A stretch of DNA of 64,000 nucleotides from Candidatus Levyibacteriota bacterium (GTDB taxonomy: Bacteria > Patescibacteriota > Microgenomatia > Levybacterales > UBA12049): positions 6,188-70,187 of the forward strand of contig PLZJ01000002.1 in the NCBI GenBank assembly GCA_003152105.1, written 5' to 3'. Both the position numbers and the translations under genes were made by a program. This document shows positions 8,339 to 50,535 of the stretch, piece by piece. The notes beneath the pieces were generated by a model that saw nothing but the letters and a program-made list of their open reading frames with translations, was not told the DNA's origin and ran no database searches. How positions within the stretch are numbered: position 1 is the stretch's first letter; each line of letters opens with the position of its first letter.

Positions 8339-8362
8339 AAAATGTCCTTTAATTATTATATC

Positions 8363-15381: not shown

Positions 15382-15455
15382 CAGAGTTATTATACGAGCT
15401 TCTTATACTATTGTACAGAGATGCAATTCGCTATGTATTTGTGTACAATATTTGT

Positions 15456-16857: not shown

Positions 16858-16858
16858 T

Positions 16859-17875: not shown

Positions 17876-17946
17876 CATCTTATTTTTTGCGCTATTGACA
17901 AGCTTGCATCCTTTATGAAATTATATAATAGATTATATTAAACTTA

Positions 17947-19416: not shown

Positions 19417-19431
19417 TGTATATAATAAATT

Positions 19432-20451
19432 ATGAAGCATATTATACTTAAGAATTACAAAAAGAAAAAATACGCATATCCAGCAACTCTAGCTGTAGTA
19501 AGTCTGTCATTATTAACAATGGTCGGGATTAAATATGCACATGCACAACAGGCAATTACGTTTACGATCAGTCCACCAGTTATTAATGCGACCCTAAACC
19601 CAGGCGATAAAAGTGAAGGTGTTATGAAAATAATAAATGACACTAACCAAACGCAAAATTATACTGTTTCCGTACAAGACTTTATTGTTGATAATTCTCA
19701 GGGTATACCACATATACTACCACCTGACACATTACCTCAAAAATACTCTGCTGCTTCATGGATTGGCGTAGATAATCCAAGTCTATCAGTACCTGCTCAT
19801 ACTCGTGTAACATTTAACTATTTTATCCAAACACCGGCAAATGCACGCCCGGGAGGTCACTACGCAGCTGCATTAATAGGTCCTGATACATCTAGCACGC
19901 TTAGCAACTCAGGAACAGGAGTTTCAGGTAAAATAGGCACACTTTTTTATATTGATATAAATGGAAATATTGTAGAACACGCAGACGTAGCTGCGTTCCA
20001 AGCAAACGGCTTTCAAGAATATGGACCAGTAACCATAAATACTCTTATTAGAAACCAAGGTGATCTTCATATTACTCCGCTGGGTACTATAACTCTTAAA
20101 GATATGTTAGGCAGAGTTGTTGCAACGGAAAAACTGGATCAACATAATATTTTTCCTGGAGGGATAGCAAGAGCTTATCAAAATGTTTTTGGACAAAATC
20201 AATTTATGATTGGTCCTTATACTGCAAAATTAGCAGCAACCTATGGAAGAAATAATAATTTACCTTTAGTAGCAACATTAACATTCTGGGTATTTCCTTG
20301 GAAAGTAGTAACACTTGTCATATTAATACTCATCGCCTTGATACTTGCTGTAAAAGTATTAAGAAGCAGAAAAGGAAAACCACCAGTTGAACACCATGAA
20401 GAGGAAGATAAAAAAGTAACAGAAACTCCAGTCGAAACACCTAAAGCATAG
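19432..20451 (+). CDS. DUF916/DUF3324-like cell-surface protein, C-terminal TM anchor plus charged tail
   Basis: 'ITFTISPPVINATLNPGDKSEGVMKIIN' matches the DUF916 N-terminal pattern. 'TFWVFPWK' then TM then RSRKGK. Confidence 0.5.
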   Translation: MKHIILKNYKKKKYAYPATLAVVSLSLLTMVGIKYAHAQQAITFTISPPVINATLNPGDKSEGVMKIINDTNQTQNYTVSVQDFIVDNSQGIPHILPPDTLPQKYSAASWIGVDNPSLSVPAHTRVTFNYFIQTPANARPGGHYAAALIGPDTSSTLSNSGTGVSGKIGTLFYIDINGNIVEHADVAAFQANGFQEYGPVTINTLIRNQGDLHITPLGTITLKDMLGRVVATEKLDQHNIFPGGIARAYQNVFGQNQFMIGPYTAKLAATYGRNNNLPLVATLTFWVFPWKVVTLVILILIALILAVKVLRSRKGKPPVEHHEEEDKKVTETPVETPKA

Positions 20452-22121: not shown

Positions 22122-22276
22122 CTTGAAGCTAGAGGGCTCTTTTAGCCTTAATACGCTTCGTGAATTTAAATACCTACTTAGTTTACTCAAAAAGAAATTT
22201 AGCACACACTGTTTTCACAAATTTTCACATGCTCAAATCGCAAACTCAAATATTATTACTTATCTAAACACTGCCC

Positions 22277-28200: not shown

Positions 28201-31200
28201 TTGGACAGCTTGTTCTGGGGTATCTTCAAACTATTGGATACAAACAAATGGAATTGGTGTAGCAAATGGTGGCTATACCGCTCTTGGAAATACCACAACT
28301 GATCTATTGATTGGTGGGACTTCAACTGCTTCTGCTGAATTTGCAGTACTAAACGTAGCGCCAGGTCTTACGCCAGTTGCTTCTGTTTCTGCAGGATCAT
28401 CTGGAACTGGAACCACAGAAAATTCAGGTATTTCACTATCTGCTAATGGAACTATACAAACTGTAGGAAGAACAACACTTACCGTTGGAGGCAATACAAC
28501 AGGAGATATATTTTTCAATCCTGGCGGTGTCGGACTTGGAAATTCTCTTTCCATAGATGTTGGTGGAAATGTAGGAATTGGTATGAATAATGGAAACGTT
28601 CCGAATGCACCCTTACAGATAAGGACTGCAATTCCTGATGTCAGCAATGGAACTGACATAAATATCACTGGAACCATGAGTTCTTTAACTAATGGTCAAT
28701 ATGGAGCAAGAATCACACCCCAACTTGGCATAAGCTCTAATCCTGCTAGTAATTTGTTTGAGTATGGGGCCGAAAACTCTCCTTCATTTAATATGGCAAA
28801 TACAGGAGTTACTTTTTCTAAAGTATTTTTAGTAGGCTCTGATGCTAATAATTTTCTTTCTGGAAATGGCATTCTTGGAACTTCAATCGGTTTTCAAACC
28901 GAAACAACACTAAATAATGATACAACTCGTGTTACTAATGCAATTGGATTAAATGTAGAAGGAATAGTAAAAAATTGTTTAACTTGTGTAGTTGGTAATA
29001 GTACGGGCATTGATATATTTGATCAAAGTGGTCTTGCCACAAATACAGCCAATCTTGTTATTAATACTAGTGGTACAGTACCAACTGGAAATTACAGTAT
29101 ATATAATGCAAGTTCACTACAAAACTATTTTGCAGGCAATCTTGGTCTAGGCACAGTTAGTCCAACTGCACAACTTCAAGTTGTTGGCACTAACTCTCCT
29201 ACTGCTTCTATTTCAGCAAATTCTGCGTTTACTGGTCTTGTCGTAGATAACAAAGGTGGAACAGCAAATCTAGGCGATATATTTACAGCATCTGCCTCAG
29301 GACTAGCTCGTTTCACGATTGCAAATAATGGAAATCTAACGTTAAATGGATCAACATATACAACAAACAACAATAGTGTTCTTTACACCAATGGGTCAGG
29401 AAATCTTCTTGCTGCAACAACAGGTTCTTCCAACCTCTGTCTTGTGTCTGGAGTATCTGCACCAACATGGACAGCTTGTTCAGGAGTTTCAAGCAACTAC
29501 TGGATACAAACAAATGGTATTGGGGTTGCTGGAGGAGGTTATACCGCTCTTGGAAATACCACAACAGATTTACTCATAGGTGGAACCTCCACTGCATCAG
29601 CTAAATTTGCAGTCTTAAACGTTGCACCAGGAGGAACTCCTGTTGCTTCTGTTTCAGCAGGAACATCTAGCTCAGGGACAACTGAAAACTCAGGTATTGC
29701 CCTTTCTGCAAATGGATCCATTCAGTCTGTTGGAAAAACAACACTTACTATTGGGGGAAATACCACCGGAGATATATCGCTTAATCCTGGAAATAATGGT
29801 GCAGGCACGCTCTATCTTGCGAGTACTGGTAATATAGGCATAGGAACTACAGCTCCTACGGCTCAACTTCAAGTTGGAGGAGGATTAAGTTCTCCAGGTA
29901 ATATCACAGTATCTTCTATTTCTGCAAATACTAATCAGGCTGGTTTAATAGTTGATAATGGCGGTGGATTAAATAATGCAGGAGCGATCTTTACTGCTTC
30001 TGCAGCTGGTATGTCGCGTTTTACTATTGCAAACTCTGGCAATCTAACGCTTAATGCATCAACTTATACCGCCAATAATATTAATGTTTTATATTCCAAC
30101 TCCTCTGGTAATGTTCTTGCAGCTTCAACTTCAACCGGAAATCTTTGTCTTACATCAAATAGTGGAGGTACTGCGGCTGCATGGGGCAATTGTTCTTCAG
30201 CTTCTAGTAACTACTGGCAGCTAAGCGGCAATGTTCTTTCCCCAGGACTTTTATCTGATGATTTAGTTATTGGAGGAAGCTCAACTTCTTCTGCGGCATT
30301 TCAGGTGTTTTCAGGTAAAAAAACATATGGAGCCATAACAGAACCAGCTGGAACTGCGTCTTCCTCTGGAGACTTATCTTTTGGAGCAGCAAATGGAACA
30401 ACGCAAAATTTAAATATATTAAATGGTAACTCATTTCAAATCAGAACTTCACCAGGTGGACCAGAAGGATTACTCGCTACTCCTGCACTGTATGTTAAAA
30501 ATAATGGCAACGTTGGCATTGGCACAGTAGCTCCAGCTTCAAAACTTGAGGTAAATGGTGACATTTCTTCAAAAAATACTTCTGTACAAGGATATGTATA
30601 TGCATACGATACTTCAGGATCACATTATGTGAGAATGTATAACGACGGTACAAACGGATACGTATCGCTTAGCGATGGAGCGACATTAGGGATTTCTTCA
30701 AATACATATGTCTTTACGCAAACACAACAATATTTTAGAGCTCAAGGAAACACCTTTACAAATTATGTTGGCTTACAAGATACAGATGCAACTGGAGGAA
30801 AACTTACAACTTCATTTGCAAATTTAAATATTAATACTGATATGACAACAGTGGTTAATACTACCGGAACAAATGTATCAGATATATTTGCTGCTTCAAG
30901 TTCTGCAACTACAAGATTTGTGATTAACTCAAATGGAAATGTTGGGATTGGCACTTCTCAACCAGGAGCACAGCTACAGATTGTAGGCACCAATGCGCCG
31001 ACGGCTTCCATTTCAGCAAACTCCGCCTATGCTGGGCTGGTTATTGATAATAAAGGAGGAACAAACAATGGCGGCGACTTGTTTACTGCGTCTTCTGCAG
31101 GACAAACTCGATTCAGAATTGCAAATACTGGTGCTGCCTTATTTCAGGGAGATACTTTAACTTCAATTGGTAATGGTGCTCAATATAATGGAAGTAATGC

Positions 31201-33631
31201 TGTTATAAATGCAATTGGAGACTCAGGAAGTCTTATTCCAAATTCTGGATTTGAATCTGCTCTTGCGGGAACATCATCGGCAAGCACAGTATATTTTGCA
31301 GATGGTTGGGCAATAGCAGCAACAATGTCTGCCAATACAATCCCGCAAACAACACGAGATACGAGTACTTCCGCTAAAGGTCAAGCTTCAGCTAAGATAA
31401 ACTTTAATGGTGGTTTAGCAGAACAAACTGCCATTTATTCTGATTGCGTACCTTTAGCGCTAGCATCTGGAACCGGCTCATATAATTTATATTATTATGC
31501 TAAATATTCCTCTAACATTCCTACTGTACGCTCATATATTGATGGATATACGTCAAAAGCAAATTGTCAAGGCGATATAAGTCCGACAATAGGCGGGATG
31601 GGTTCTCCTACTTTAACTACTTCGTGGGCAAACTACGGAACTGCAAACATTTCAGGCTTAGGTGCAAATATTACATGGGGACGTGTTCATTTCTTTATTG
31701 CTTCAACAAATCCAGGTGGAGCAGCTTGGATAGACGGCGTAAGGCTCATAGAATCTGATACTTCTCATGGTGTTGACTATGCTGAAAATTACCCTGCAAA
31801 TCCAAGCAATATTCCTCAACCAGGAGATGTGGTTACTATCCTACCATTAAATGGTGTAACTGTTGTTCAACCCTCTACGACATATCAAGATTCCTCAACA
31901 ATTGGAGTTGTTTCAACGCAACCAGGAGAAGTGCTTGACGATGGGCAAATGCCTAGTCCAAAAGTTCCAATTGCCCTATCAGGACGAATACCAGTCAAGG
32001 TATCTACTAAATATGGCTCTATACATGTTGGAGATTATGTAACCTCTTCTGAAATACCTGGAGTAGCTGTTAAATCTACAAGACCAGGGATTGTAATTGG
32101 AACTGCAATGGAAGATGATACCGATCCTAATCCAGATGATATAAATAGCATAGTAGTATTTACACATGTAGGTTATGAAAATCCTATGCCACAAATTGCA
32201 AGCATCAATGATCTTTCTATTACTGCAAATGATAATTCTGTTGATAATTCACTTGCCTATATTATTAAAGACGCCACAGGCAATACTATTGATTATATAG
32301 ATGCATTTTCTTCTGCAGCGATTGGGGTATTAAAAGCTGGCTCAATCCAAGCAACAGATATAGCAACAAACACCCTTTCAATCAATGGTCAATCCATAAA
32401 AGATTATATCCTTTCAGTTGTACAAAATGCTGGACTTAACAACGGCACTCTTATATCACCTATTGCATCAGTGAATGAGATTCATACTAATTTAATTTCC
32501 CCGCTTTCAGAAAATGGAAATGTTGAAATAGCTTTAGGAAATAACACAGTTTCAGTTCAAAATAAAACAACTGGAAAAACAGTTGCATCTATTGATGATA
32601 ATGGAAATGCAACATTCTCAGGTACGATTCGAGCAAAACGAATTATTGCAGATGAAATAGTTGGATTAAATAACAGTACAGAGTCTGCAAGTTATATTAC
32701 TCAAAACGTTTCAAATATTACAAATGTTTATAATAGTACGCCTTCTGCAAGTTCAAACATTATCTCTCCAGTAAGTTCAGGAAGCGGACAGATTGCTTCA
32801 AATGTAGATACCCTATCTTCAAGTAATTTACAAACGAGTAATATTGATATTGCATCATATTCATCAGAGCTTCAATCTGTTAATAATCTACAAGAAACTA
32901 CTGGCAGCTTTACTGACGGTTTAATCGCTTTTGGCCCATCTAGCTTCACGGATGTTTCAGTTGCAGGAAAGTTCTCTGTTGATAGAAGTTTAACTATTGG
33001 GAGCAACTCAATAAATGTCATTGGAAACGATTTACAGCTTCAACCCCTACAACAAGGCGGCGTATCCATTGAAGGAGGATTAGTTTACATTGATGCTTCT
33101 GGAAACATGCGAGTGAATGGAAATACCGAATTTGCACAAAATGTGACAGTAAAAGGAACTTTAGCCGCAGGAATTATAAGCCCATTAGCAAATCAAAATT
33201 TGAATGTTGAGCTTCCTGGCAACAATAATTTTAATGTACAAACAGCTACAGGAAGTAGTGTATTACAAATAAATGGTAAAGGAGATATTAATTCATCTGG
33301 AAGTGGGAATTTTGCGGATGTATTAGCTAATGAATTTAACATTATTAGAAGTGCACAAGCAGATACTTCAAATACTCAAACAGTAGCAAGTGGTTCCGCA
33401 GGAACAGCAACAATTGTAAAGGGTCAAACTGAAAGAACAATTATAACACCCTATGTAAAAGCAAATTCATTGATTTATATTACTCCAACTTCAGATACAC
33501 AAGGAGTCATTCCTTATGTTGCTCGCCAAACAACAAATGATCCAGATAATAATAACAAGAGCTCATTTACTATTCAAATTTCTACACCAACATCAAAAAA
33601 TATAAATGTTAATTGGTGGATTGTAAATTAA
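22277..33631 (+). CDS. Giant (3784 aa) membrane-anchored surface protein. It has N-terminal tandem tyrosine-recombinase-type core-binding (SAM-like) domains, a basic linker, a TM anchor, a LamG-like lectin module, a Gly-rich repeat region, repeated Cys-loop modules and a conserved C-terminal module.
   Basis: aa 1-215: two copies of the 'T(V/I)KNY..D(I/V).QF.KW....LSSLRK(F/Y)' integrase N-terminal pattern. The first ATG lies after an in-frame TAA at 22265. TM 'YSITHYFHFAILIIFASTVAFITY' at ~23410-23490. LamG hallmark 'YYKFDENSGTIANDATGNGNTATLNGA..WTSSGK...LQLDGSTNYVS' at 26488-27130. Confidence 0.8.
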   Translation: MEFIKSFIDFLIEHKSSKATVKNYRADISQFVKWYEATYKTTFSPNDVTNQIIASYKTVRLSSDSNNTLSQKTIERHLSSLRKFFSYLLSENITTSNPFAASEEKQIEKDIWHIQAFKNFLYVNNSSNLTIKNYIIDVRQFLKWVEEVVQAQEAWIVTDQNIFTYINKNLIEEYRSRLIESSGFSPTSVNRKLSSLRKYISWAVDNGIVANIEEDPISNNLVKDDVLKNISENINDNKYITNKHFDEVIANQTSAYSSIPPIRLIQRAFKLLDLAFVFFLIIPTAKAFKLSKYNFWKFKGKEVFTSQTPISPKLDSINKLNRIQNNVSNRLLNLRKQNPNIKKIFYAPLSVSTKYMPFHKKLLFHLRYTRPKWYKKYHSYSITHYFHFAILIIFASTVAFITYQHFFQSKGNQAEAVAQTTIPRILSFQGILTDANGNPIATTKQIRFELYNDPSATGSGKELWEEVRTVTPDQNGIFAVNLGINGVSTGNCASFPPPGPATGACTIPVSVFTQNSNVYLGVTIGSDIELTPRQQIAAVGFAANSESLQGLIPTTDTGSISSLSLGNYYEVLATDGNGNVTLGGSTLTTIQETGGGLRLIGNPLILTTANGGNLQLSTDTKGLIDVQKPLTNTTTNGNARINGTGNVTDTGAVEVDGLFATLATSSGQSAVTIDQQSTGPVLSASVSGQAVFTIDNSGNLTNSGNITTSGSGAGLTFSGGSTHNISASGGTLQLGAITLNGAIAGGGQNITGLGTINGLGITANTGVITTGTWNANPISTQYGGTGQNWSSAAQGSIPYFSSTGGMGLIGVGSSAQCLIGGTTPTWSSCSSASSNYWQLDATGKVLSQINSYDLTVGSSPATGSSTSSAAFQVFALSKGNTPAGTISSAGNLQVAGIASSSALAVGYGINQVTANNLVVSGNVGIGTNTPAALLDIEGTTGAPNANQVLKIIGGTGVGGGSGLAGGTGAIASISAGNGGAGGSNASGNGGFGGNGGGQLILAGSGGTGGNSTLANQSGGFGGQGGTLGFVTGNGGNGGSDTAGSGAATSNGGNGGNGGDFNLILGTGGQGGSSHGSSSTIGLGGNGGSVYLQAGTGGTAGAAGNGINNDGLGGNITIAGGTGGSSTLGTFGNGGKVYIYGGLAGSGSVGNVVLAQTSAGVNQGNVGIGQANPTSILDIGTVNPTIQADSSNTNLALSTNGTGSLFIDTTAAGNIKIASNAALLSLGNSTHLTTLLGNNIYNPNITGAGNTGGVFYDANNQGSLAVTAAGSNGNCLLSGGAGAPTWGSCGSAGGSYWQLNSNVVSPVQNYFDLSVGGTATASAPFQVFASRNPLTFTPAGTISTLGNIQVAGVASSSALAVGYGQNQVQSGSGNAVFSGNVGVGTNTTSNAQLTDQLSSYTLLNSLQVYYKFDENSGTIANDATGNGNTATLNGANIWTSSGKINSGLQLDGSTNYVSTNYVGPLGSNARSVNIWFKGWTTTERTIWNYGGAGTAGALDFEEGIGGNGNSIGFRTGGGAYGYWTTSLTNDGLWHMLTVTYAAGGLENTIKLYLDGVQQNSLTDNFGGNTVNTTSGVLTMGDITGTGISGLDEFAVWGRSLTSAEVTQLYNSGSGKQYSFTSLLQLLSNSGSVLSSFNGAGSLGIGTIAQNALDVFGSAAFGSYAGNQYAPTNGLIISGNVGIGTSSPSGQLQVFGSSNNPTASISANSAYTGLLVDNSGGTSAQGSIFTASTSGITKFTVNNNGLILVGTNSTTNPGTLSVYGTIQSNGIANGGTDFLALGLPSTPTGLPQYLGNWQSTQAWALGPISNSSTDKTVYLGIASNTTGTWNGASYANLSVGGNVAVGYHYPSFTGIASLIVNQQTGGADLITASASGTTKFNVDNNGDITIAAGSYIDTNAGGTLSIGTNNATTLNLATNTNVTALSIGNGSSVDKIFGSGITTNQNSVLYLGAANQLGAATTGSSNLCLVSGANTPTWTACSGVSSNYWIQTNGIGVANGGYTALGNTTTDLLIGGTSTASAEFAVLNVAPGLTPVASVSAGSSGTGTTENSGISLSANGTIQTVGRTTLTVGGNTTGDIFFNPGGVGLGNSLSIDVGGNVGIGMNNGNVPNAPLQIRTAIPDVSNGTDINITGTMSSLTNGQYGARITPQLGISSNPASNLFEYGAENSPSFNMANTGVTFSKVFLVGSDANNFLSGNGILGTSIGFQTETTLNNDTTRVTNAIGLNVEGIVKNCLTCVVGNSTGIDIFDQSGLATNTANLVINTSGTVPTGNYSIYNASSLQNYFAGNLGLGTVSPTAQLQVVGTNSPTASISANSAFTGLVVDNKGGTANLGDIFTASASGLARFTIANNGNLTLNGSTYTTNNNSVLYTNGSGNLLAATTGSSNLCLVSGVSAPTWTACSGVSSNYWIQTNGIGVAGGGYTALGNTTTDLLIGGTSTASAKFAVLNVAPGGTPVASVSAGTSSSGTTENSGIALSANGSIQSVGKTTLTIGGNTTGDISLNPGNNGAGTLYLASTGNIGIGTTAPTAQLQVGGGLSSPGNITVSSISANTNQAGLIVDNGGGLNNAGAIFTASAAGMSRFTIANSGNLTLNASTYTANNINVLYSNSSGNVLAASTSTGNLCLTSNSGGTAAAWGNCSSASSNYWQLSGNVLSPGLLSDDLVIGGSSTSSAAFQVFSGKKTYGAITEPAGTASSSGDLSFGAANGTTQNLNILNGNSFQIRTSPGGPEGLLATPALYVKNNGNVGIGTVAPASKLEVNGDISSKNTSVQGYVYAYDTSGSHYVRMYNDGTNGYVSLSDGATLGISSNTYVFTQTQQYFRAQGNTFTNYVGLQDTDATGGKLTTSFANLNINTDMTTVVNTTGTNVSDIFAASSSATTRFVINSNGNVGIGTSQPGAQLQIVGTNAPTASISANSAYAGLVIDNKGGTNNGGDLFTASSAGQTRFRIANTGAALFQGDTLTSIGNGAQYNGSNAVINAIGDSGSLIPNSGFESALAGTSSASTVYFADGWAIAATMSANTIPQTTRDTSTSAKGQASAKINFNGGLAEQTAIYSDCVPLALASGTGSYNLYYYAKYSSNIPTVRSYIDGYTSKANCQGDISPTIGGMGSPTLTTSWANYGTANISGLGANITWGRVHFFIASTNPGGAAWIDGVRLIESDTSHGVDYAENYPANPSNIPQPGDVVTILPLNGVTVVQPSTTYQDSSTIGVVSTQPGEVLDDGQMPSPKVPIALSGRIPVKVSTKYGSIHVGDYVTSSEIPGVAVKSTRPGIVIGTAMEDDTDPNPDDINSIVVFTHVGYENPMPQIASINDLSITANDNSVDNSLAYIIKDATGNTIDYIDAFSSAAIGVLKAGSIQATDIATNTLSINGQSIKDYILSVVQNAGLNNGTLISPIASVNEIHTNLISPLSENGNVEIALGNNTVSVQNKTTGKTVASIDDNGNATFSGTIRAKRIIADEIVGLNNSTESASYITQNVSNITNVYNSTPSASSNIISPVSSGSGQIASNVDTLSSSNLQTSNIDIASYSSELQSVNNLQETTGSFTDGLIAFGPSSFTDVSVAGKFSVDRSLTIGSNSINVIGNDLQLQPLQQGGVSIEGGLVYIDASGNMRVNGNTEFAQNVTVKGTLAAGIISPLANQNLNVELPGNNNFNVQTATGSSVLQINGKGDINSSGSGNFADVLANEFNIIRSAQADTSNTQTVASGSAGTATIVKGQTERTIITPYVKANSLIYITPTSDTQGVIPYVARQTTNDPDNNNKSSFTIQISTPTSKNINVNWWIVN
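25133..25710 (+). repeat. Gly-rich low-complexity coding repeats (GGNGG/GGTGG-type) inside the giant gene
   Basis: ~190 aa of 'GGTGVGGGSGLAGGTG...NGGNGGNGGDF...GGQGGSS...GTGGTAGAAGNG'. Confidence 0.7.
28141..29775 (+). repeat. Intragenic duplication within the giant gene. Two ~365-nt copies (28141-28512 and 29411-29775) encode ~95% identical peptide modules. The nucleotide copies differ at many synonymous sites.
   Basis: Both encode 'AATTGSSNLCLVSG...PTWTACSGVSSNYWIQTNGIGVA.GGYTALGNTTTDLLIGGTSTASA.FAVLNVAPG.TPVASVSAG...TTENSGI.LSANG.IQ.VG.TTLT.GGNTTGDI'. Confidence 0.7.
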
Positions 33632-36307: not shown

Positions 36308-37507
36308 TTAATGTGTTCCCACATAACCAATTGGATCTACAAATACGCCGTTTCTTATAATCTCAAAATGGGTATGAGGACCAGTAGTTCTACCAGTTAA
36401 TCCCACCCACCCTACAACTGTTTGCCCACCAACTACTGATTGGCCAACTGACACATTTACTGCTTCCATGTGAGCATAATGAGTTTTGTAGCCATCTCCA
36501 TCATCTATATATACATTTGTACCATATCCTTCGTCATATCCTCCCACATGTACTATAGAAACGGTTCCAGAGTGTGCAGCATATATTGGAGTACCTATTG
36601 GAGCAGTAATATCATCTGCCTGGTGATACCAGCTAAAATATTGAGATATTCCAGTATTTGTAGGTAGCGGGAAGAACCAACCTCCTGCTGCAGCAGGCAC
36701 TTGCCCGTTATATGTTGAATCCTGCTGTTGCGTGGCAATATACGTGGGCACTTCGCTTGGCTTTACGCCATTTGGAACTATGATAATTTCGCCATCTACA
36801 AGGGTAAATGTTTCTGGATTGGCAAATTCGTTAAAAGGAAAATCGACAATTCCTTGCGGATCTGTGCCATACTTCTTAGCTATTGTATAAACAGTGTCTC
36901 CAGATTCAACTTTATGCGCTATTCCAGTTACAGGTAAAATTTTTAAATCATCTCCTGGGTTAATATTGTCATCTGATAAGTTATTTTCCCATCGTATGGT
37001 ATCTTCAGATATATTAAACTTCTTAGCAATAGTTGAAATTGTATCTCCATTTTGAACTGTATACGTAATGATTTGATCTCTTGGCTTTTGAGAAATGTTT
37101 GTAGCAAAAACATTATCACCTACTGCTATTGATTGCTGATCTGCCTGAGCACTTCCAATTTTTGGCACTGAAAAACTACTTTTTGAGAAGATTGGAAATG
37201 TGTCTGCAAGCATTGGACCAATTATTAATCCTAGCCCTAAAACTACCATGGTAGCTAAATGTAAAAAAGGACGGTTATACCGTCCACGTTTTGTTTTAAA
37301 CAAACGCATAAAAATATTTTTTTGTGATTCAAAATATAGGAATAAAGTAGTAATTTTTTTCTTCAAATAATAAAAGAGAAATCCAAAAAATGCGCCTAAT
37401 TCTTTATTGACGCGTCCAATATGACGAGGTAATAATGGGATTCTGCGAGCTCGCATGAGTTCATTTAGGATACCAAATCTCAGATTATTAGTCAAATATT
37501 TAGGCAC
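36308..37507 (-). CDS. LysM-domain M23-family peptidoglycan metalloendopeptidase (the true start may be the internal Met at ~37309)
   Basis: Two LysM repeats (YTVQNGDTISTIAKKF..., HKVESGDTVYTIAKKY...). M23 motifs 'HYAHM' and 'GPHTHFEI'. Confidence 0.75.
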   Translation of the reverse strand: MPKYLTNNLRFGILNELMRARRIPLLPRHIGRVNKELGAFFGFLFYYLKKKITTLFLYFESQKNIFMRLFKTKRGRYNRPFLHLATMVVLGLGLIIGPMLADTFPIFSKSSFSVPKIGSAQADQQSIAVGDNVFATNISQKPRDQIITYTVQNGDTISTIAKKFNISEDTIRWENNLSDDNINPGDDLKILPVTGIAHKVESGDTVYTIAKKYGTDPQGIVDFPFNEFANPETFTLVDGEIIIVPNGVKPSEVPTYIATQQQDSTYNGQVPAAAGGWFFPLPTNTGISQYFSWYHQADDITAPIGTPIYAAHSGTVSIVHVGGYDEGYGTNVYIDDGDGYKTHYAHMEAVNVSVGQSVVGGQTVVGWVGLTGRTTGPHTHFEIIRNGVFVDPIGYVGTH

Positions 37508-37549: not shown

Positions 37550-38869
37550 TTATCCTTTTCCGAGAGTTTCTAAAAATGCTTCATTAGTATCTGTTTTAGA
37601 GAGCCTATCAATTAACATTTCTGTGCGCTCATCTGAAGACAACATGTCTAACATTCTTCTCATGGTAACTACTTTTTTGTATGTTGGCTCATCAAATAAT
37701 CTCTCTTCTCCTCGGGTTCCAGAACGTTGTGCATTAATGGAAGGGAAAATTCTTCGTTCTGCAAGAGATCGATCTAAATGAAGTTCCATATTTCCAGTCC
37801 CTTTAAATTCTTCATAAATTAAATCATCCATTCTGCTTCCCGTCTCTACTAAAGCTGTTCCAATAATAGTTAAACTTCCACCTTCCTGGCAATTTCTAGC
37901 TGCTCCAAAGAAACGCTTAGCAGGCCATAAAGCCGCAGGATCAAAACCTCCTGACAATGTTCTACCACTTGGTGCAACAGATAGATTATATGCTCTTGCT
38001 AGTCGCGTTACTGAATCAAGTAGAATAACAACGTCTATTCCTTGCTCTACAAGTCGCTTTGCTCTTTCAAGTGTAATCTCTGCAACTCGAGTCTGATTCT
38101 CAGGTGGTTCGTCAAAATTTGAAGCTACAACATCTCCTTTTACGGACATTGAGATATCAGTTACTTCCTCTGGACGCTCACCAATTAAAGCTGCCATCAG
38201 ATGAACTTTTGGAAAGTTCTGCGCGATTCCTGCAGCTATTTCTTTTAGAATTGTTGTCTTACCTGCTTTTGGAGGTGACACAATTAACCCTCTTTGACCA
38301 AACCCAATTGGCGAGACAAGATCTATCATTCGAGTTGATAATGGCACTTTTCCTGTACCTAAAATAATTTGTTTTGTTGGATAAATAGCTGTTAAATCAT
38401 CAAAGTGCGGTCTTCGTAGAGCTTCTTCAGCTGTTGCGCCATTAATTTTTTCAACCTTTAATAGGCCAAAATAACGCTCTGTGTCTTTTGGAGGTCTGGC
38501 TACGCCTTCAACTAAATCTCCAGCTCGAAGCATAAATCTTCGTATTTGGGTTTGAGCTATATAAACATCTCTAGAAGAAGGGATGAATTTTGGTCGCAAA
38601 AAACCATGACCTTCAGGCTGAATATCAAGAATTCCTGAAACTTCTTCTGTTGGAACATTCATATCTCGCTCCATAGGTCTATGACCTCTATTGTTATATG
38701 GTTGGTGATAACTTTGTTGGATTATTGGTTCTCTTATTGGTTCACGAGGACTCGAGTCATCAAATATTGGTTTTGATTTTTCTACCACAACACTTGCCTG
38801 CTCTGATTGATCCTGAGGGCTTCCGACAATATCTTGAATAGATTGAGTACGTAATTTTTTTGTAGGCAT
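37550..38869 (-). CDS. rho: Transcription termination factor Rho (with N-terminal low-complexity extension)
   Basis: Walker A 'PPKAGKTTILKEIA'. 'ALVETGSRMDDLIYEEFKGTGNMELHLDRSLAERRIFP' is near-identical to the canonical Rho C-terminal region. Confidence 0.9.
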   Translation of the reverse strand: MPTKKLRTQSIQDIVGSPQDQSEQASVVVEKSKPIFDDSSPREPIREPIIQQSYHQPYNNRGHRPMERDMNVPTEEVSGILDIQPEGHGFLRPKFIPSSRDVYIAQTQIRRFMLRAGDLVEGVARPPKDTERYFGLLKVEKINGATAEEALRRPHFDDLTAIYPTKQIILGTGKVPLSTRMIDLVSPIGFGQRGLIVSPPKAGKTTILKEIAAGIAQNFPKVHLMAALIGERPEEVTDISMSVKGDVVASNFDEPPENQTRVAEITLERAKRLVEQGIDVVILLDSVTRLARAYNLSVAPSGRTLSGGFDPAALWPAKRFFGAARNCQEGGSLTIIGTALVETGSRMDDLIYEEFKGTGNMELHLDRSLAERRIFPSINAQRSGTRGEERLFDEPTYKKVVTMRRMLDMLSSDERTEMLIDRLSKTDTNEAFLETLGKG

Positions 38870-39137
38870 ACAGTAAGTGAAATAAGCGATTAGTTGCGTA
38901 ACATGTCTTTTAGGGAATTAGTTCGAAGCAAATAAACTAGCTGTATTACACCATACTATCTAATGCTTGTCAAGAAGTAATTTAGCAATTCTTTTTATTC
39001 CTTTAAAGTGCATTATTATTGAATCTAAAAATATTACTTACATAATACGATATTTCAGAGTAATTATTTTATAATTAGCCTTAGATGAAGAGCTTGAAAT
39101 TCTTAAAATACGGTGTTACAATACCTAATTACAACAA

Positions 39138-39177
39138 CTGCCTGTTGCTAAATCGGTTAGCAATGTGGCAGTTTTTT
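39138..39177 (+). terminator. Leader hairpin plus U-run of the same CTGCC...GGCAG type, upstream of the 39210 gene
   Basis: CTGCC-tg-TTGCTA-aatcggt-TAGCAA-tgt-GGCAG followed by TTTTTT. It lies in a divergent intergenic region with no upstream + strand gene to terminate. Confidence 0.4.
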
Positions 39178-39209
39178 ACAATAAATAACTGTATTTTTAT
39201 ATATATTTT

Positions 39210-39548
39210 ATGAAATATTTAGTAATAATTCTTTTTATAATTCTTAGTATCTTCTATGTGAACAAAGCAAATGCTTCATGTAAAGTAGTATATGGAGGAG
39301 GCCAAAATTCATGCACTAGTTCATCTTCATCGACAAATGGAATAGTGACACAGCAATCTCTAGGATCAAGTTCAGTTATTACTTATGGTCCTAAAACACA
39401 ACAAACAAAAGGTGGATTACCAATATATCCAACACAAAATACTACTCATACTCCTTCAACAGGTACAGAAACCCTCCCATTATTATTTGTATCCTTTCTT
39501 GGTTTGATTGGTATCGCAATAAGAAGAAAAACAACAAAATCTTTTTAA
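39210..39548 (+). CDS. Small secreted Ser/Thr-rich protein with a C-terminal tripartite sorting-like signal (TGTETLPLL + hydrophobic + RRK)
   Basis: Signal peptide. C-terminus '...STGTETLPLLFVSFLGLIGIAIRRKTTKSF'. Confidence 0.5.
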   Translation: MKYLVIILFIILSIFYVNKANASCKVVYGGGQNSCTSSSSSTNGIVTQQSLGSSSVITYGPKTQQTKGGLPIYPTQNTTHTPSTGTETLPLLFVSFLGLIGIAIRRKTTKSF

Positions 39549-39569
39549 ATCTGCTCCAATGATATTTTT

Positions 39570-40325
39570 ATGAGTACTCAAGCATTAGTATCTATTTTAC
39601 TTCCTGTAAGAAATAATGAACATCACTTAGTAGCCTGCTTAGAAAGCCTTCTTTCGCAGACGTACACAAATATAGAAATAATTGCCATAGATGATTACTC
39701 AAGAGATAATTCCTATGCAATACTAACATCATATAGAAAAAAGGATAAACGTATCAAAATATATCGTAATGTAAAACAATATGGCTTACGACTTACATTA
39801 AATAGATGCGTTAAGCGATCTCGAGGAGAATTTATCGCCTTTATGAATCCTGATGACTACTCGTCAAAAAGTAGAATCGCAAGACAAGTCCAATTCTTAT
39901 TACAAAATCAAAAAATCGCAGCAGTGGGAACTCAATGCTATATAGTCAATAGTTACGATAAAAAACTCGAGGCCTCCCGATTCCCCTCTGAACACGAAAC
40001 TATCTACAATAGCCTACTTCATACTGACTCAATGCAACCAGAATCTATAATGATTAATAAATACAATGTACCCAAAGATCTTCTCCAATTTACAAGTGAT
40101 GCATACCCTTATATATATCGAAGATTTCTACTTAATCTCGTTAAATATGGTGAGGTGGCAAATATAGGCACGAGACTCTATTTCCATAGAGACAGCAATA
40201 TTGTTAAACTTTCTATGAGAAAATATCTCCCAATATTTATGAAGCTTTTGGTTAAATCACATACGCTGTATGATTATAGACCTACATTTTCAGCATTATT
40301 CATGCCTCTAGTTAAAGGGATTTAG
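39570..40325 (+). CDS. GT2-family glycosyltransferase
   Basis: 'ILLPVRNNEHHL...IEIIAIDDYSRDNS' GT-A N-terminal signature with DxD-type 'NPDD'. Confidence 0.7.
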   Translation: MSTQALVSILLPVRNNEHHLVACLESLLSQTYTNIEIIAIDDYSRDNSYAILTSYRKKDKRIKIYRNVKQYGLRLTLNRCVKRSRGEFIAFMNPDDYSSKSRIARQVQFLLQNQKIAAVGTQCYIVNSYDKKLEASRFPSEHETIYNSLLHTDSMQPESIMINKYNVPKDLLQFTSDAYPYIYRRFLLNLVKYGEVANIGTRLYFHRDSNIVKLSMRKYLPIFMKLLVKSHTLYDYRPTFSALFMPLVKGI

Positions 40326-40440
40326 GATTAACCAGACTACAAATATATTATAGTAATATTGTCCTATAATTTTTAGTACATATAATATATTTCTTCATTT
40401 TAGAGGTATAATAATCGCTCGATTCGGAAAAACTGACTAC

Positions 40441-40469
40441 TTGACAAGTCCTATAACATTAACTATAAT
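40441..40469 (+). promoter_or_regulatory. Consensus sigma70-type promoter (TTGACA-17-TATAAT), first of two in tandem
   Basis: TTGACA 40441-40446, 17-nt spacer, TATAAT 40464-40469. Exact match to both hexamers. Confidence 0.6.
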
Positions 40470-40496
40470 GCTCTAATATTACTTTAGGCAGGTAAA

Positions 40497-40525
40497 TTGA
40501 CAACAAGCAAAGGATAATTTATAAT
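40497..40525 (+). promoter_or_regulatory. Second consensus sigma70-type promoter (TTGACA-17-TATAAT)
   Basis: TTGACA 40497-40502, 17-nt spacer, TATAAT 40520-40525. 35 nt upstream of the ATG at 40560. Confidence 0.6.
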
Positions 40526-40534
40526 CCTTCCAAA

Positions 40535-40559
40535 CTGCCTACAAAAAGGCAGTTTTTTT
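40535..40559 (+). terminator. Leader hairpin plus U-run (intrinsic-terminator-like/attenuator) abutting the 40560 start codon
   Basis: CTGCCT-acaaaa-AGGCAG followed by TTTTTTT, then ATG. Confidence 0.45.
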
Positions 40560-41279
40560 ATGAAAAAATTAATCAGCATATTACCAATCATACTAGTACT
40601 TCTCAGCTCGTTTGCGGGTCAAACTTTTGCCGATGATTATGGAGTATCTAACTATGGTAGTAATTGTAATAGTTCCTATGGTGGCAGCAATTATTCTGGT
40701 TCCTCATGTTCTGTTAGTACCATTAGCATAAACAAGCTTGTACAAAATCCAAAATCAAAACAATATGTGGAAAATCTCGCATTAACTGATCCTAATTATG
40801 CTCCAAATCAAATAGTGCCTTTTCAAATTAATATAACAAACACTGGCAATACTTCTCTTACAAATGTAAAAGTAGTAGATAGTTTCCCACAATACACAAC
40901 CTTTGCCGGTGGACAAGGCAGCTATAATCAAAGTCAAAATACTGATACCATTACCGTTGGTAGCCTAAATCCTAATCAAAGTGAATCTATTATGGTAGAT
41001 GGAAAAGTCGGAGATACTAACACTTTACCACAAAATCAGTCACAATTTTGTTTAGTTAATGAAGCAAGCGTAACGGCGGATAATATACCATCAAGCACAG
41101 CTAATTCTCAATTCTGTGTGACTCAGCAAATTTCCGGAGTTACAACTAAAGGAGGGCTTGAAGTAGCCTCACCAACAACTATATCAAAAACTCCTGGGAC
41201 TGGACCTGAAGCATTACCTTTACTTGCTCTTTTACCAACTGGATTATTAGGTGCTTTGCTTCGAAGAAAAACTAAATAA
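40560..41279 (+). CDS. Secreted DUF11/CARDB-like repeat-domain protein with the same C-terminal sorting-like signal (TGPEALPLL + hydrophobic + RRK)
   Basis: Signal peptide. 'FQINITNTGNTSLTNVKVVDSFP' is typical of the DUF11 conserved-repeat domain. C-terminus '...TPGTGPEALPLLALLPTGLLGALLRRKTK'. Confidence 0.55.
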   Translation: MKKLISILPIILVLLSSFAGQTFADDYGVSNYGSNCNSSYGGSNYSGSSCSVSTISINKLVQNPKSKQYVENLALTDPNYAPNQIVPFQINITNTGNTSLTNVKVVDSFPQYTTFAGGQGSYNQSQNTDTITVGSLNPNQSESIMVDGKVGDTNTLPQNQSQFCLVNEASVTADNIPSSTANSQFCVTQQISGVTTKGGLEVASPTTISKTPGTGPEALPLLALLPTGLLGALLRRKTK

Positions 41280-41601
41280 CACTGCTCCACTTTCCTCAGG
41301 CAGGCATTCTTACAATATTCTTACTATAGGTATCTATACTACATCTATTATATGTTAAAATTAGCTGTTAAATTAGCCTTGATTCAGTTTAAGCTTAGCT
41401 CTAGAATAAACTTGACAAAATGTTAAAATATGATATACTACAGGATAGTTCTGCTCAACTATACTTAAGGCGCAGAATAATGCGTCTTTTTTCGTATTTT
41501 GAGAAAGAACAATACTATGCCCCTGCTAATAGCTAGCAAACAGGCATACGCACATTAATAATTGGGAATCAGGAAATATAAGAATTCAGCACTTTCTAAG
41601 T

Positions 41602-41683
41602 GGCTGCGTTCTGTAGGTATAGATGCTTCAAGTAAATCCGGGCAGAATTTATTTGTGGCTATACTAGCCTACAGAACGCAGCC
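41602..41683. repeat. 16-bp perfect inverted repeat (GGCTGCGTTCTGTAGG ... CCTACAGAACGCAGCC) at the left edge of the GC-rich island
   Basis: Arms at 41602-41617 and 41668-41683, ~50-nt loop. The GC-rich ORF begins 170 nt downstream. Confidence 0.6.
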
Positions 41684-41856
41684 AAAAATAAAAACTTAGA
41701 GAGGAAGAATTAATGACGTGATAAACAAGCGCGACGGACCGATATCGATGACAGCTTTGGATGATCCCATCCGTTATTGACCATTGTGTCAAAGGGGTAG
41801 CTCTTGCACTATGCATTAGCTTAGCTTCAGAATAACCGAAAAGAAAGAGGAAATTC

Positions 41857-42891
41857 ATGCGTATACTACGCGGCGACAAGTATGTGTTGGCATTTGCGTT
41901 AAGCATCGTGCTTAGCCTTATCGTCAACTTCTACAGCGTTCTTCCTGTATCGGCTTCTCCGATCTCGAACGGCGCTGCCTCATCGGCCCTTACGAACAGC
42001 ATCTTTCCGGCTAACCACTTGCAGCTTTCTGAGCCAAGTATAGCCTATGAGATGCATACCGTGTCTAACTTCAAGCCACTTGTGGTTGGTCCATGCAGAA
42101 TGACCGATATGGGAAACATCAACACCCACGGCAAATGGATCACGCTCGTCGGCGCAGTCGGTGGATCAGGTTTCGGCCTTTGGTCTGGAACTAACGCTCA
42201 AAGAATCGAAATTTACCTGCACCTGAAATATGGTCAGACAGTTCGATTCCGGGGCCAAGGTCACCGATGGGACATGAAGTACGTCTGTCCAGACAAAAAT
42301 TTCTGGGGAGAGCAGGCATCTCACTATCTCAACGTCCGTACCGGACTGGGATTTACGATGGGTCCTGCAGTCGACAAGGAAACGCCTTGGTATCAGTTCT
42401 TCGACAATCCGTTTTGTCAGCCTATGAACATGCAGGTATCCGAAGTCGGAACCTTCATGCATCTGAGCATTCAAGACTCACAGTGGAATGGAAAGTTCTA
42501 CAGCATCGAAAAAGGATGTCCAGGACCGCCCAAGACACCATGTCTTGCAAAACGAATCGGAGACAGTACCAAAGTACCAGACAACAAGCCGTGGAAAATC
42601 AACGTCCCTGCACATCACTACTATGTGATTAACGATGCGTGGACTAACTTCGCGTCGTTACCAAATCTGCAAGGACAACAGTGGATCATCTTGCTCAAAC
42701 CGCAAGCACACACGATCTACTTCAACGGCCGAGGAAGTCTCTGGGACGAAGGCGATGCACCACGCTGCTTTAATCCAACTATGGGAGAAATCTGGCGTGA
42801 CGTAGCCAAGTACCAACATACCGCACATCCTTGGACGTTCCTCCAGGAATCGGCACTCGCCTCATATCACCTGGTTGGTTCGACCAACTAA
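41857..42891 (+). CDS. Secreted Cys/Trp-rich protein of unknown family, encoded in a GC-rich compositional island
   Basis: Signal peptide (LAFALSIVLSLIVNFYSVLPVSASP). At least 9 Cys. Codon usage rich in CGC, GGC and CCG, unlike the rest of the window. Confidence 0.6.
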   Translation: MRILRGDKYVLAFALSIVLSLIVNFYSVLPVSASPISNGAASSALTNSIFPANHLQLSEPSIAYEMHTVSNFKPLVVGPCRMTDMGNINTHGKWITLVGAVGGSGFGLWSGTNAQRIEIYLHLKYGQTVRFRGQGHRWDMKYVCPDKNFWGEQASHYLNVRTGLGFTMGPAVDKETPWYQFFDNPFCQPMNMQVSEVGTFMHLSIQDSQWNGKFYSIEKGCPGPPKTPCLAKRIGDSTKVPDNKPWKINVPAHHYYVINDAWTNFASLPNLQGQQWIILLKPQAHTIYFNGRGSLWDEGDAPRCFNPTMGEIWRDVAKYQHTAHPWTFLQESALASYHLVGSTN

Positions 42892-42943
42892 ATCACAAAG
42901 GTCGACTCGACCTAGATCTAGCTTCTGCTAGATATCCTGAATT

Positions 42944-42991
42944 CCCAAGGGGGGATAAAGAAAGTATAGGAAACTATACTACCCCCTTGGG
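42944..42991. repeat. Nested hairpin/palindrome (CCCAAGGGGGG...GTATAGgaaaCTATAC...CCCCCTTGGG) at the right edge of the GC-rich island
   Basis: Outer arms 42944-42954 and 42982-42991. Inner palindrome GTATAG/CTATAC. Preceded by palindromes GTCGACTCGAC and CTAGATCTAG (42901-42920). Confidence 0.5.
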
Positions 42992-43091
42992 CGGAAAAGC
43001 AATATATTAGTAACCTGCAATGCAGAAGATTCACGATTTGCTCGTGAAACCCTTTTCTTGCTATTACTGCTATTCCGCCCTTCCCACCTTA

Positions 43092-49761: not shown

Positions 49762-50535
49762 TTATTTACTACTAGTTCCTAAAATAATAACTATTGAGGC
49801 GTTTGGAGGAGCAATTTCTCCTTGTGGCATTTGACTTATTGTTCCATTAAGACCTTTTGCTAAGGTTTGTGCTTGCGTTGTTTGGTTTCCGCTAATGTCA
49901 ACAATAATTGTTGTAGTATATGTACTCTTTACTGCATTTCCTTTACTTATGACATTTGCTGTGGGATCTGCTGTTTTTAATTTATCCTCGATAGTTCTTG
50001 TAAAGCCTACAATTTGTGTCCCATTTAGCAAAGCAACAGAAACTTTTTGAGGAGTTGGACTACTTCCTTGAGTTGTTTGCTGAGTGCTTTGCGTTACTCC
50101 AAATGGCCCAACATTTACTAACTTATTTGTTGTTGGATCGTAAATTATTGCTTTTTTTGCGTTTGCATATATTAACACCTTATCTCCATTTTTTGCGTTT
50201 GTAAAAAACAATTGTCCTTTTAATTTACTAATATCTGTAATAGTAGCTATTGTAGGTACTTCAGAAGGTAAATCGATTAATTTGCCGACTTCTTCAATAA
50301 CCTGATTAGTTTGCGCAGCAGGAGTACTTAATTTTGTTTTCTGATTTTGTACAAAAAAATATACGCCTATAATAATTAATAGGAAAAGTACTAAAATTCC
50401 AAACAAAAATAGTATTGTTCTAAATGGAAATTTTTGCTGCACTTTGCCAGTTGCAATAACCTCTTCTTCGAAAAATGAAGTTACTACAACTGGCGCACTA
50501 TCTTCTTTTTTTGCAGCTTTTTTCCTTACCGGCAT
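49762..50535 (-). CDS. Membrane-anchored LytR_C-domain protein
   Basis: N-terminal basic region plus TM. C-terminal 'KVSVALLNGTQIVGFTRTIEDKLKTA...ASIVIILG' matches the LytR C-terminal domain pattern. Confidence 0.55.
   Translation of the reverse strand: MPVRKKAAKKEDSAPVVVTSFFEEEVIATGKVQQKFPFRTILFLFGILVLFLLIIIGVYFFVQNQKTKLSTPAAQTNQVIEEVGKLIDLPSEVPTIATITDISKLKGQLFFTNAKNGDKVLIYANAKKAIIYDPTTNKLVNVGPFGVTQSTQQTTQGSSPTPQKVSVALLNGTQIVGFTRTIEDKLKTADPTANVISKGNAVKSTYTTTIIVDISGNQTTQAQTLAKGLNGTISQMPQGEIAPPNASIVIILGTSSK

Follow-up and report, generated by a model that had tools for sequence, protein, structure and literature searches.

Terminator-like hairpins in the leaders of two sorting-signal genes of a Levyibacteriota bacterium

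Results

Two sorting-signal genes with hairpin leaders

The window analyzed in the present study is a stretch of 64,000 nucleotides (nt) from contig PLZJ01000002.1 (positions 6,188 to 70,187, forward strand) of the assembly GCA_003152105.1, derived from a Candidatus Levyibacteriota bacterium, a member of the candidate phyla radiation (CPR). Its plus strand holds two genes, here called gene 1 and gene 2, whose products end in a sorting signal, and the 5′ leader of each gene contains a hairpin directly followed by a run of Ts. An M23 peptidase gene and rho, both on the minus strand, are followed by gene 1, a GT2 glycosyltransferase gene, gene 2, a G+C-rich island, and further glycosyltransferase and membrane genes (Table 1). 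Genes 1 and 2 have in common the signal peptide and its Cys motif as well as the TKGGL...PxTGxE-transmembrane segment (TM)-RRK tail, and because nothing but these N- and C-terminal modules is shared, gene 1 looks like a domain-less paralogue of gene 2.

A first-pass annotation of this DNA had noted CTGCC/GGCAG arms with six and seven Ts in the two leaders, which was confirmed base for base, and two exact TTGACA-N17-TATAAT promoters 56 nt apart before gene 2, which were also found exactly where it had placed them. RNA folding of both leaders predicted stable hairpins, with free energies (ΔG) of −18.8 kcal/mol (z −3.6) for hairpin 1 and −12.2 kcal/mol (z −4.6) for hairpin 2, and both stems extend past the pentamer arms given in that annotation. 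The two hairpins have the sequence properties of an intrinsic terminator, that is, a stem with 4–7 G-C pairs, an apical loop of 5–6 nt, and T6 or T7 directly 3′ of the stem. The T-runs are present on the plus strand alone; read on the minus strand, the stems have TTGTTG or TTTGGAAGG behind them. In addition, the plus-strand RNA of hairpin 1 is more stable than its minus-strand counterpart (−18.8 versus −16.5 kcal/mol) because of two G·U pairs.

The usual position of a terminator, the 3′ end of a transcription unit, is not the position of these hairpins. With rho running divergently on the minus strand, there is no gene before hairpin 1 in the same direction that it could terminate, and the annotation had already placed this hairpin in a divergent intergenic region where it terminates nothing upstream. 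Hairpin 2 lies 207 nt past the GT2 gene yet downstream of two consensus promoters, P1 and P2. Both occupy the position of an attenuator, between the ATG and the start site predicted from the promoters. The predicted start site of P2 (~40532) is the first base of hairpin 2, the −10 box of gene 1 ends 13 nt before the base of hairpin 1, and thus both hairpins start 6–13 nt past a −10 box. P1 and P2 are the sole promoter matches at all 12 positions in the stretches scanned (1–20000 and 33000–64000). Counted from the −10 box, the predicted unpaired 5′ stretch before the stem is 0 nt for P2, 5–7 nt for gene 1, and 0–9 nt for the relatives described below. No Rfam family was found near the leaders at the gathering threshold or at E ≤ 10, with only tRNAs reaching the gathering score in the window, and inspection of the sequence revealed no upstream open reading frame (uORF) in the two leaders.

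Table 1. Positions of the genes, promoters, hairpins and related features in the window
Feature	Position	Strand	Description
Gene 1	39210–39548	+	112-aa secreted mini-protein; signal peptide, C..YGGGQ.SC motif, TKGGL..TPSTGTE-TM-RRK sorting signal
GT2 glycosyltransferase gene	39570–40325	+	next after gene 1
Gene 2	40560–41279	+	239-aa DUF11/CLIPPER surface protein; signal peptide, TKGGL..TPGTGPE-TM-RRK sorting signal
rho	37550–38869	−	
Predicted promoter of gene 1	39094–39122	+	TTGAAA-17-TACAAT, TGn extended −10; 10/12 plus TG
Promoter P1 of gene 2	40441–40469	+	TTGACA-17-TATAAT, 12/12; orthologue of the family-wide conserved module TTGACA-N3-CCTATAA...
Promoter P2 of gene 2	40497–40525	+	TTGACA-17-TATAAT, 12/12; lineage-specific
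Leader hairpin 1 + T6	39136–39177	+	stem AACUGCCUGUUGCUAA / UUAGCAAUG-U-GGCAGUU; 32 nt 5′ of ATG 39210
Hairpin 1, pentamer arms and T-run	39138–39142, 39167–39171, 39172–39177	+	CTGCC, GGCAG, T6
Hairpin 1, predicted fold	39136–39173	+	16 pairs, one bulged U, 5-nt loop
Leader hairpin 2 + T7	40532–40559	+	AAACUGCCU-ACAAAA-AGGCAGUUU
Hairpin 2, pentamer arms and T-run	40535–40539, 40548–40552, 40553–40559	+	CTGCC, GGCAG, T7 abutting ATG 40560
Hairpin 2, predicted fold	40532–40555	+	9 pairs, 6-nt loop
UAGGCAG, upstream copy of the 3′ arm	40485–40491	+	in P1 or read-in transcripts only; candidate antiterminator partner of CUGCCUA 40535–40541
Third promoter	41412–41439	+	TTGACA-16-TATACT with TG
Third hairpin + T-run	41467–41488, run to 41495	+	AAGGCGCA-GAAUAA-UGCGUCUU, then UUUUCGUAUUUU

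Placement of the hairpins and origin of the shared arms

The bare motif CTGCC-N3-33-GGCAG occurs twice in the window against 0.51 expected, and at least twice in 10 of 100 shuffles, so the count itself is only weakly significant. Terminator-like sites in general are at the level of shuffled sequence (7 versus 9.6 in 1–20 kb and 12 versus 10.1 in 44–64 kb), and so are the six sites that a stricter scan of the whole window gave (at least 6 T in 7, ΔG ≤ −9). The only intergenic ones among those six are hairpins 1 and 2, and a regular-expression search of the 64 kb for the C-terminal sorting signal gave exactly two genes, the two behind these hairpins. The placement of the two hairpins is not a matter of chance. 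AGGCAG, considered as a dispersed motif, is at chance level in the window (26 versus 20). ACTGCCC also stands at 22270–22276, directly before the ATG of a 3,784-aa open reading frame (ORF; 22277–33631) that has no sorting signal; this is probably a coincidence, with ACTGCCY occurring 16 times in the window versus 8.7 expected.

The arm sequence common to both leaders had been taken as a sign of a common regulon, a proposal that we do not retain: the arms are generic, the orthologues use other arms, and there is no third CTGCC/GGCAG copy in the 64-kb window. The sequence AACTGCCT-N3-33-GGCAGTTTTTT was found at 120 or more loci among 185,579 reference genomes, and the matches listed, among which the source genome does not appear, include Firmicutes, Bacteroidota, Proteobacteria, Saccharibacteria and others. 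Among six CPR matches that were inspected, three lie within ~30 nt of the end of a co-directional ORF, and the six appear to fit ordinary 3′ terminators. These A-tract/CTGCC...GGCAG/T-tract terminators of Saccharibacteria, Firmicutes and Bacteroidota (loci L007–L126) have identical arms, a U-run and comparable stability, but they are situated 0–100 nt past stop codons, whereas the hairpins of the window come after promoters and before start codons. Judged from these sequences, CTGCC/GGCAG arms are generic terminator arms, not a regulon tag. The arms that the two leaders share are explained by common descent of these leaders, the genes being partial paralogues.

Conservation of the leader in related genomes

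Other assemblies of the same population are 100% identical, and there are no compensatory changes to read there. The next relatives show at most 49% identity for the DUF11 protein and ~75% for Rho, and the divergent rho–DUF11 arrangement is conserved at the family level. A metagenome scan with a nine-sequence alignment yielded 80 orthologous loci, which correspond to 63 distinct leaders. Almost all of the orthologous leaders contain a promoter module, TTGACA-N3-CCTATAAT-N5-6-TAnnnT, and P1 of the window is its orthologue, while relatives do not have a second promoter at the position of P2. The module is 30 nt long with a (TG)nTAnnnT −10 box, and its DNA sequence is conserved in dozens of Microgenomates genomes with proteins of only ~50% identity; it lies ~60–100 nt upstream of the DUF11 gene in L131–L210. 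The spacer of the module is nearly a palindrome, CCTATA-N1-2-TATAGG in L131 and L003, and resembles an operator placed within the promoter. In many relatives, the module occurs twice per locus, with second copies, for example, at L003 8191, L131 5613, L144 5612, L146 5491, L161 5498, L170 5449 and L179 5465, while in the window it is found only once, with the right half of the palindrome lost and no other copy present.

Downstream of the module, the orthologous leaders fall into two classes. The short leaders have 11–30 nt from the −10 box to the ATG, with neither a hairpin nor a T-run. In the others, a stem-loop of −7 to −17 kcal/mol begins 3–16 nt after the −10 box and is directly followed by T5–T9, and the ATG comes 0–45 nt further on, most frequently 9 nt past the stem. 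When a hairpin with ΔG ≤ −7 directly followed by at least five Ts within 45 nt of the ATG was taken as the criterion, 26 of the 63 family leaders, compared with 3 of 141 upstream regions of other genes from the same loci, had the element (Fisher 1.3e-12, with related sequences treated as independent in this and all other leader counts), and each of the three control cases is the 3′ terminator of the gene before it. If the strongest leader hairpin was chosen regardless of T-runs, a T-run still followed directly in 19 of 28 leaders; in most of the remaining nine, the hairpin is the same one lengthened by A:U pairs that reach into the run, or there is an insertion resembling a miniature inverted-repeat transposable element (MITE).

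The arms differ in sequence while keeping their complementarity. Sixteen arm haplotypes were found, in which pairing is 99% within a sequence versus 34% for arms combined across sequences. GATACTG/CAGTATC is the commonest pair; others are TGATACTG/CAGTATCA, GCGATACTG/CAGTATCGC, AACGATAC/GTATCGTT, AACGATAGT/ACTATCGTT, ATAGTACTG/CAGTACTAT and ACTGCCC/GGGCAGT, in addition to AAACTGCCT/AGGCAGTTT of the window itself. RNAalifold on a MAFFT alignment gave a consensus of six pairs, five of which show compensatory double changes, and the loop or spacer between the arms varies from 5 to 24 nt. The hairpin is single-copy per related locus, always precedes the same gene family, and is found at places all over much of the protein tree, with hairpin-less clades in between. 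Because of the enrichment in family leaders and of arms that differ yet remain complementary, the comparison indicates that the hairpin leader element is real, functional and strand-specific.

In the MAFFT alignment, ACTGCC in the 5′ arm of hairpin 2 falls under GATACTGCC of other 5′ arms, so that the hairpins appear to be homologous, their stems being offset in register by 3 nt. ACTGCC was found in 14 of 67 family leaders versus 4 of 140 others, and it is kept in some leaders that have no 3′ arm (L160, L197, L169 and L155).

Two further peculiarities of the related leaders were observed. In L136 (~2395–2495), L140 (~225–280) and L170 (~2425–2495), a small palindromic insertion (ATGACCC...GCTCAGGGTCAT) separates the T-run from the DUF11 start codon. 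An ATG is duplicated by it, and it has the appearance of a MITE with this leader as its target. A hairpin-less clade (L163, L173, L181, L185, L189, L195, L203 and L206) has a conserved (A)GGCAGGAT directly before the DUF11 ATG; the motif lies within the last 10 nt, too near for a canonical Shine-Dalgarno (SD) sequence, and presumably resembles a GGA-type, CsrA-like protein-binding site.

Rarity of leaders in the genome

For 13 of the 20 genes of the window with a good promoter, the −10 box ends 4–20 nt before the ATG, with eight of these at 5–8 nt; across the window, most genes have a TATAAT-like box that ends 5–20 nt before the ATG and lack an SD sequence, for example those with ATGs at 11919, 19432 and 45761 on the plus strand and those at 12862–15381 and 49762–50535 on the minus strand. 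SD-like motifs were found in 4 of 37 genes. The genome thus appears to be essentially SD-free and mostly leaderless or short-leadered, and the two sorting-signal genes are exceptions, with leaders made of a hairpin and a U-run.

Discussion

The element has the sequence definition of an intrinsic terminator and the position of an attenuator, and it is probably best described as a leader terminator or a 5′ hairpin of a surface-protein gene. It is undescribed but structurally simple and of a well-known hairpin type. Leader terminators and attenuators known from 3′-end mapping and prediction (PMC7815308, PMC5314783, PMC13613805) similarly have a hairpin and a U-tract between the promoter and the ATG, and the distance of 0–45 nt from the ATG and the conservation in orthologous leaders add to the likeness. 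Unlike the known attenuators, however, the leader here consists of hardly anything besides the terminator. Neither an aptamer nor a leader peptide, T-box or other sensor was found in it, an antiterminator alternative exists in a single transcript isoform of one gene only, and it corresponds to no Rfam family. The CPR bacterium that carries this leader is SD-free and leaderless, with few leaders elsewhere in its genome. Stabilizing stem-loops within the 5′ untranslated region (UTR) are another familiar type and are found also in the ompA and aprE leaders. The slpA gene with two promoters and a 5′-UTR hairpin (PMC10221546) and vacA (PMC4843948) are alike in their strong or tandem promoters and the stable hairpin at or near the 5′ end of the mRNA of an envelope protein made in large amounts, but in such leaders no U-tract is obligatory and the SD sequence is left exposed, whereas here U5–U9 invariably follows the stem and there is no SD sequence.

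Attenuation or riboregulation of the two genes had been suggested in the first-pass annotation, and part of that proposal stands. A role at the leader level is plausible in light of the stable 5′-leader hairpins behind strong promoters and the conservation of this architecture with compensatory changes in the arms; on the other hand, no sensor was found, the antiterminator alternative is confined to the P1 transcripts of gene 2, and a 5′ stabilizer would suit the promoter-proximal position just as well. Our leading candidate, which we hold tentatively and at somewhat less than an even chance, is an intrinsic terminator that lies promoter-proximally and throttles or gates the output of a very strong promoter; the start sites, the termination activity and any regulation are predictions from sequence. 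The hairpin and U-run would be transcribed as the first 25–50 nt of the mRNA of a sortase-type surface protein. When RNA polymerase leaves the strong promoter or promoters, the hairpin would form while the U-tract sits in the RNA–DNA hybrid, and a fraction of the transcripts would be released 5′ of the start codon, leaving the read-through fraction to set expression. Read-through might be modulated by general factors that affect folding and elongation speed, such as NusA/NusG, nucleoside triphosphate supply and RNA chaperones, and also by a factor that recognizes the conserved 5′-arm (GAU)ACUGCC; ACUGCC is the sole candidate for a sensor site in the leaders. The read-through mRNAs would retain the 5′ hairpin and may gain stability from it.

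The reading as a terminator agrees with several observations. The short-leader orthologues have no T-run before the ATG, and therefore the U-run goes with the hairpin rather than with translation initiation. Its variable distance from the ATG, 0–45 nt among orthologues, is as expected of leader terminators, which are known to peak ~20 nt from the start codon (PMC13613805). A hairpin with a T-run stands at 18 of 137 3′ ends of genes in the related genomes, and identical arms serve as 3′ terminators in Saccharibacteria; CPR polymerases, therefore, presumably terminate at such signals.

Other observations weigh against a promoter-proximal terminator. No sensor domain, uORF or Rfam family was found in the leaders. 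The hairpin always starts 3–16 nt from the −10 box, a constraint that an attenuator does not need and that a 5′-terminal stabilizer predicts. No gene 3′ end in the window has a hairpin with a T-run, so that intrinsic termination by this organism is not independently evident. If constitutive, hairpin 1 with its −18.8 kcal/mol and T6 would nearly silence gene 1 and the glycosyltransferase gene behind it. The element is missing from ~60% of the orthologues and from the orthologue of the gene 1 mini-gene in another genome (L211), and the counts that establish the family-wide enrichment give related sequences the weight of independent ones.

How the terminator might be gated in gene 2 is suggested by the ~50 extra nt that lie between P1 and the hairpin compared with the relatives and that contain P2. 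In transcripts from P1, the sequence of the 3′ arm, UAGGCAG, is present a second time, and this copy could pre-empt the 5′ arm and lead to more read-through than from P2. In the nascent RNA 40476–40546, the minimum free energy fold pairs UAGGCAG with CUGCCUA (−13.3 kcal/mol), and a complement of at least 7 nt occurred in 20 of 5000 shuffles of the P1 leader. Against such a switch, the terminator fold is favored once the 3′ arm is complete (−19.0 kcal/mol, ~6 kcal/mol more stable than the alternative), and no antiterminator-type complement exists in gene 1 or in the tested hairpin-bearing leaders of relatives: the longest complement in their genuine leader hairpins, GATACTG-type and others, is at most 4 nt, with MITE-affected L136 and L140 reaching 5–6 nt. 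Promoter choice could thus set the read-through in gene 2, as a single-genome observation. A CPR-specific circuit, in which a factor on (GAU)ACUGCC blocks the hairpin while P1 transcripts carry an antiterminator and P2 transcripts start with the terminator, seems to us rather unlikely; if true, two perfect promoters would give different read-through fractions.

A less probable but still considerable alternative to the promoter-proximal terminator is that the hairpin terminates nothing and acts as a 5′-terminal stabilizer or insulator of the mRNA. It would guard an abundant mRNA from 5′-end-dependent RNases and prevent the start region from pairing with sequence upstream of it, and the U-run would be an unstructured S1-type landing site for ribosomes in a bacterium that has no SD sequences. 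The spacing is what such a role would require, because the stem base lies a short way past the −10 box in every case, with the predicted P2 start at the first stem base and the predicted start of gene 1 ~5–7 nt before the stem; a leadered mRNA in an SD-free, leaderless genome also needs some other arrangement, and the gene ends of the window make no use of a hairpin with a T-run. The U-run is a difficulty, since a stabilizer does not need one, yet 5–9 Us directly follow the stem in essentially all cases, and the short-leader orthologues are translated without any U-run; nor is the distance between the U-run and the ATG fixed. In the large GATACTG clade, the predicted 5′ single strand is 7–9 nt, which exceeds what protects well in Escherichia coli or Bacillus subtilis. 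Precedents exist in S-layer genes, where tandem strong promoters and a stable 5′-UTR stem-loop give long-lived mRNAs (Lactobacillus slpA, PMC10221546), and in Helicobacter pylori, where vacA mRNA is stabilized by a 5′ stem-loop (PMC4843948). We therefore rank the promoter-proximal terminator first, possibly with a benefit of the 5′ hairpin to the read-through mRNA, and a purely post-transcriptional stabilizer or insulator second.

The other explanations fit the data poorly. It is improbable that the short terminated RNA (~27–85 nt for gene 2 and ~47 nt for gene 1) is itself the product, acting in trans, for example by titrating a protein, with the downstream gene expressed by leakage only. Premature terminators are known to yield trans-acting small RNAs (PMC7815308, PMC13613805), and a strong promoter is followed at once by a terminator-type hairpin three times in 2.4 kb, the third time, at 41412–41495, without a native ORF close behind; the loops and single strands are, however, unconserved, with only the stem and ACUGCC kept, so that a conserved seed is lacking, the product from P2 would be nothing but a 27-nt hairpin, and the element occurs once per locus, before the same gene family each time, and is missing from 60% of the orthologues. 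About equally improbable, or marginally more so, is the view of hairpin 2 as the 3′ terminator of a gene 1–GT2 operon, with hairpin 1 a chance or relic palindrome and the promoters incidental. Although the stretch from the GT2 stop (40325) to hairpin 2 contains no further terminator-like site, and the identical motif is an ordinary 3′ terminator in other bacteria, hairpin 1 has no co-directional gene upstream, the hairpin of the relatives lies in the divergent rho–DUF11 spacer, again with no such gene upstream and always 3′ of the conserved promoter, and the enrichment (26/63 versus 3/141) also speaks against it. Least probable of all is a DNA-level element, either an operator bound by a dimeric regulator or a small palindromic repeat that is mobile. 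The arms of hairpin 2 are perfectly palindromic and overlap the predicted start site, where repressors often bind, and MITE-like palindromes have been inserted into the leaders of L136, L140 and L170; but an arm spacing of 5–24 nt and 16 arm haplotypes do not agree with an operator of fixed half-sites and spacing, the G·U pairs and the one-sided T-run show strand-specific selection at the RNA level, and two copies in 64 kb and one per related locus are not the distribution of a dispersed repeat such as a MITE or repetitive extragenic palindrome.

Several further ideas were rejected. One is a hairpin that masks a second promoter for leaderless mRNA: the GATACTG clade does have TATCAT in its 3′ arm, but without a −35 box or TG, and nothing comparable exists in the window. 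Phase variation through the T-run or reiterative transcription does not agree with a run 25–45 nt from the start site, outside the promoter and the coding sequence, and an RNA thermometer does not agree with an AUG outside the stem.

To our knowledge, gene regulation in CPR bacteria (Patescibacteria) is almost unexplored, and we know of no cis-regulatory RNA characterized in Microgenomates. The leader is a compact and testable unit, composed of a promoter module whose DNA sequence is kept in dozens of genomes and, in ~40% of these, a covarying terminator-type hairpin. The gene 2 product, which has an isopeptide-bond (CLIPPER) domain and the form of a sortase-type substrate, is probably a major protein of the cell surface. 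These episymbionts depend on attachment to a host, which is mediated by proteins of this kind. A leaderless, SD-free host genome lends itself well to the question of what purpose a leader serves, and a strong promoter with a tunable leader would be a useful part if genetic tools for CPR bacteria or their hosts arise.

Other features of the locus

Downstream of gene 2, a third unit of promoter, hairpin and T-run (41412–41495) is possibly related to the leader hairpins; its hairpin has −11.3 kcal/mol on the plus versus −6.8 kcal/mol on the minus strand. Beyond it are a box, CGCACATTAATAA, at 41547–41560 and a perfect 16-bp inverted repeat at 41602–41617 and 41668–41683. Relatives have a counterpart of the unit behind the second promoter module, with covarying stems (ACCC/GGGT, GCCC/GGGC, AATCC/GGATT and GATATCC/GGATAT), a conserved CCAA..GCGG loop context and a CGCACATTAACAAGG box. 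The region 41412–41860 has no Rfam match and may represent an undescribed noncoding RNA or a long leader. The neighboring island at 41500–43000, with 44–49% G+C in a background of 30–35%, was probably acquired horizontally; its ORF at 41857–42891 encodes a secreted 344-aa protein that matches no family and is the sole nearby gene with an SD-like AGAGGA. The window as a whole has 35% G+C, and the best matches of its Rho are from Microgenomates and Levybacteria.

CLIPPER is an isopeptide-bond domain of surface adhesins (PMC12617251), and sortase is nearly ubiquitous across Microgenomates (PMC6744442); no sortase gene was found among the ORFs of the window that were scanned. The key positions of the sorting signal, TTKGGL-x(8-12)-TP-x-TGPE-hydrophobic-RRK, are invariant across the family, as is the N-terminal CQPIYGGGQTC Cys pair. 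No Pfam or NCBIfam model covers this signal, the sole match being a weak, sub-threshold one to VPXXXP-CTERM. A DsbA-like thioredoxin gene is located at 7187–7834. In L211, rho is followed by a gene for a 114-aa mini sorting-signal protein (4001–4345), with a GT2 glycosyltransferase gene further downstream, and the pairing of gene 1 with GT2 is therefore conserved in a second genome, where the gene 1 orthologue has a short leader without a hairpin. This pairing hints that the mini-protein might be glycosylated or might work with the glycosyltransferase.

The promoter of rho (38945–38973, minus strand; TTGACA-17-TGTAAT with a TGn extension) gives this gene a leader of ~70 nt, and it is conserved together with the surrounding GTATTACACCATA...TTGTCAAG in the rho–DUF11 spacer of many relatives. 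A connection with the Pam pilus of CPR bacteria was considered and dropped as not evident: the conserved gene context reported for it consists of ATP-synthase genes, a corB-like gene and a major facilitator superfamily transporter gene, with no mention of rho (bioRxiv 10.64898/2026.03.03.709456). The M23 peptidase gene contains a compact perfect hairpin, GGACGGTATAACCGTCC, with T6 (37269–37285, minus strand), which has the look of a terminator 265 nt past rho. It was rejected as a further leader element, since it encodes a KRGRYNRP segment conserved in orthologues, and is most likely a by-product of coding.

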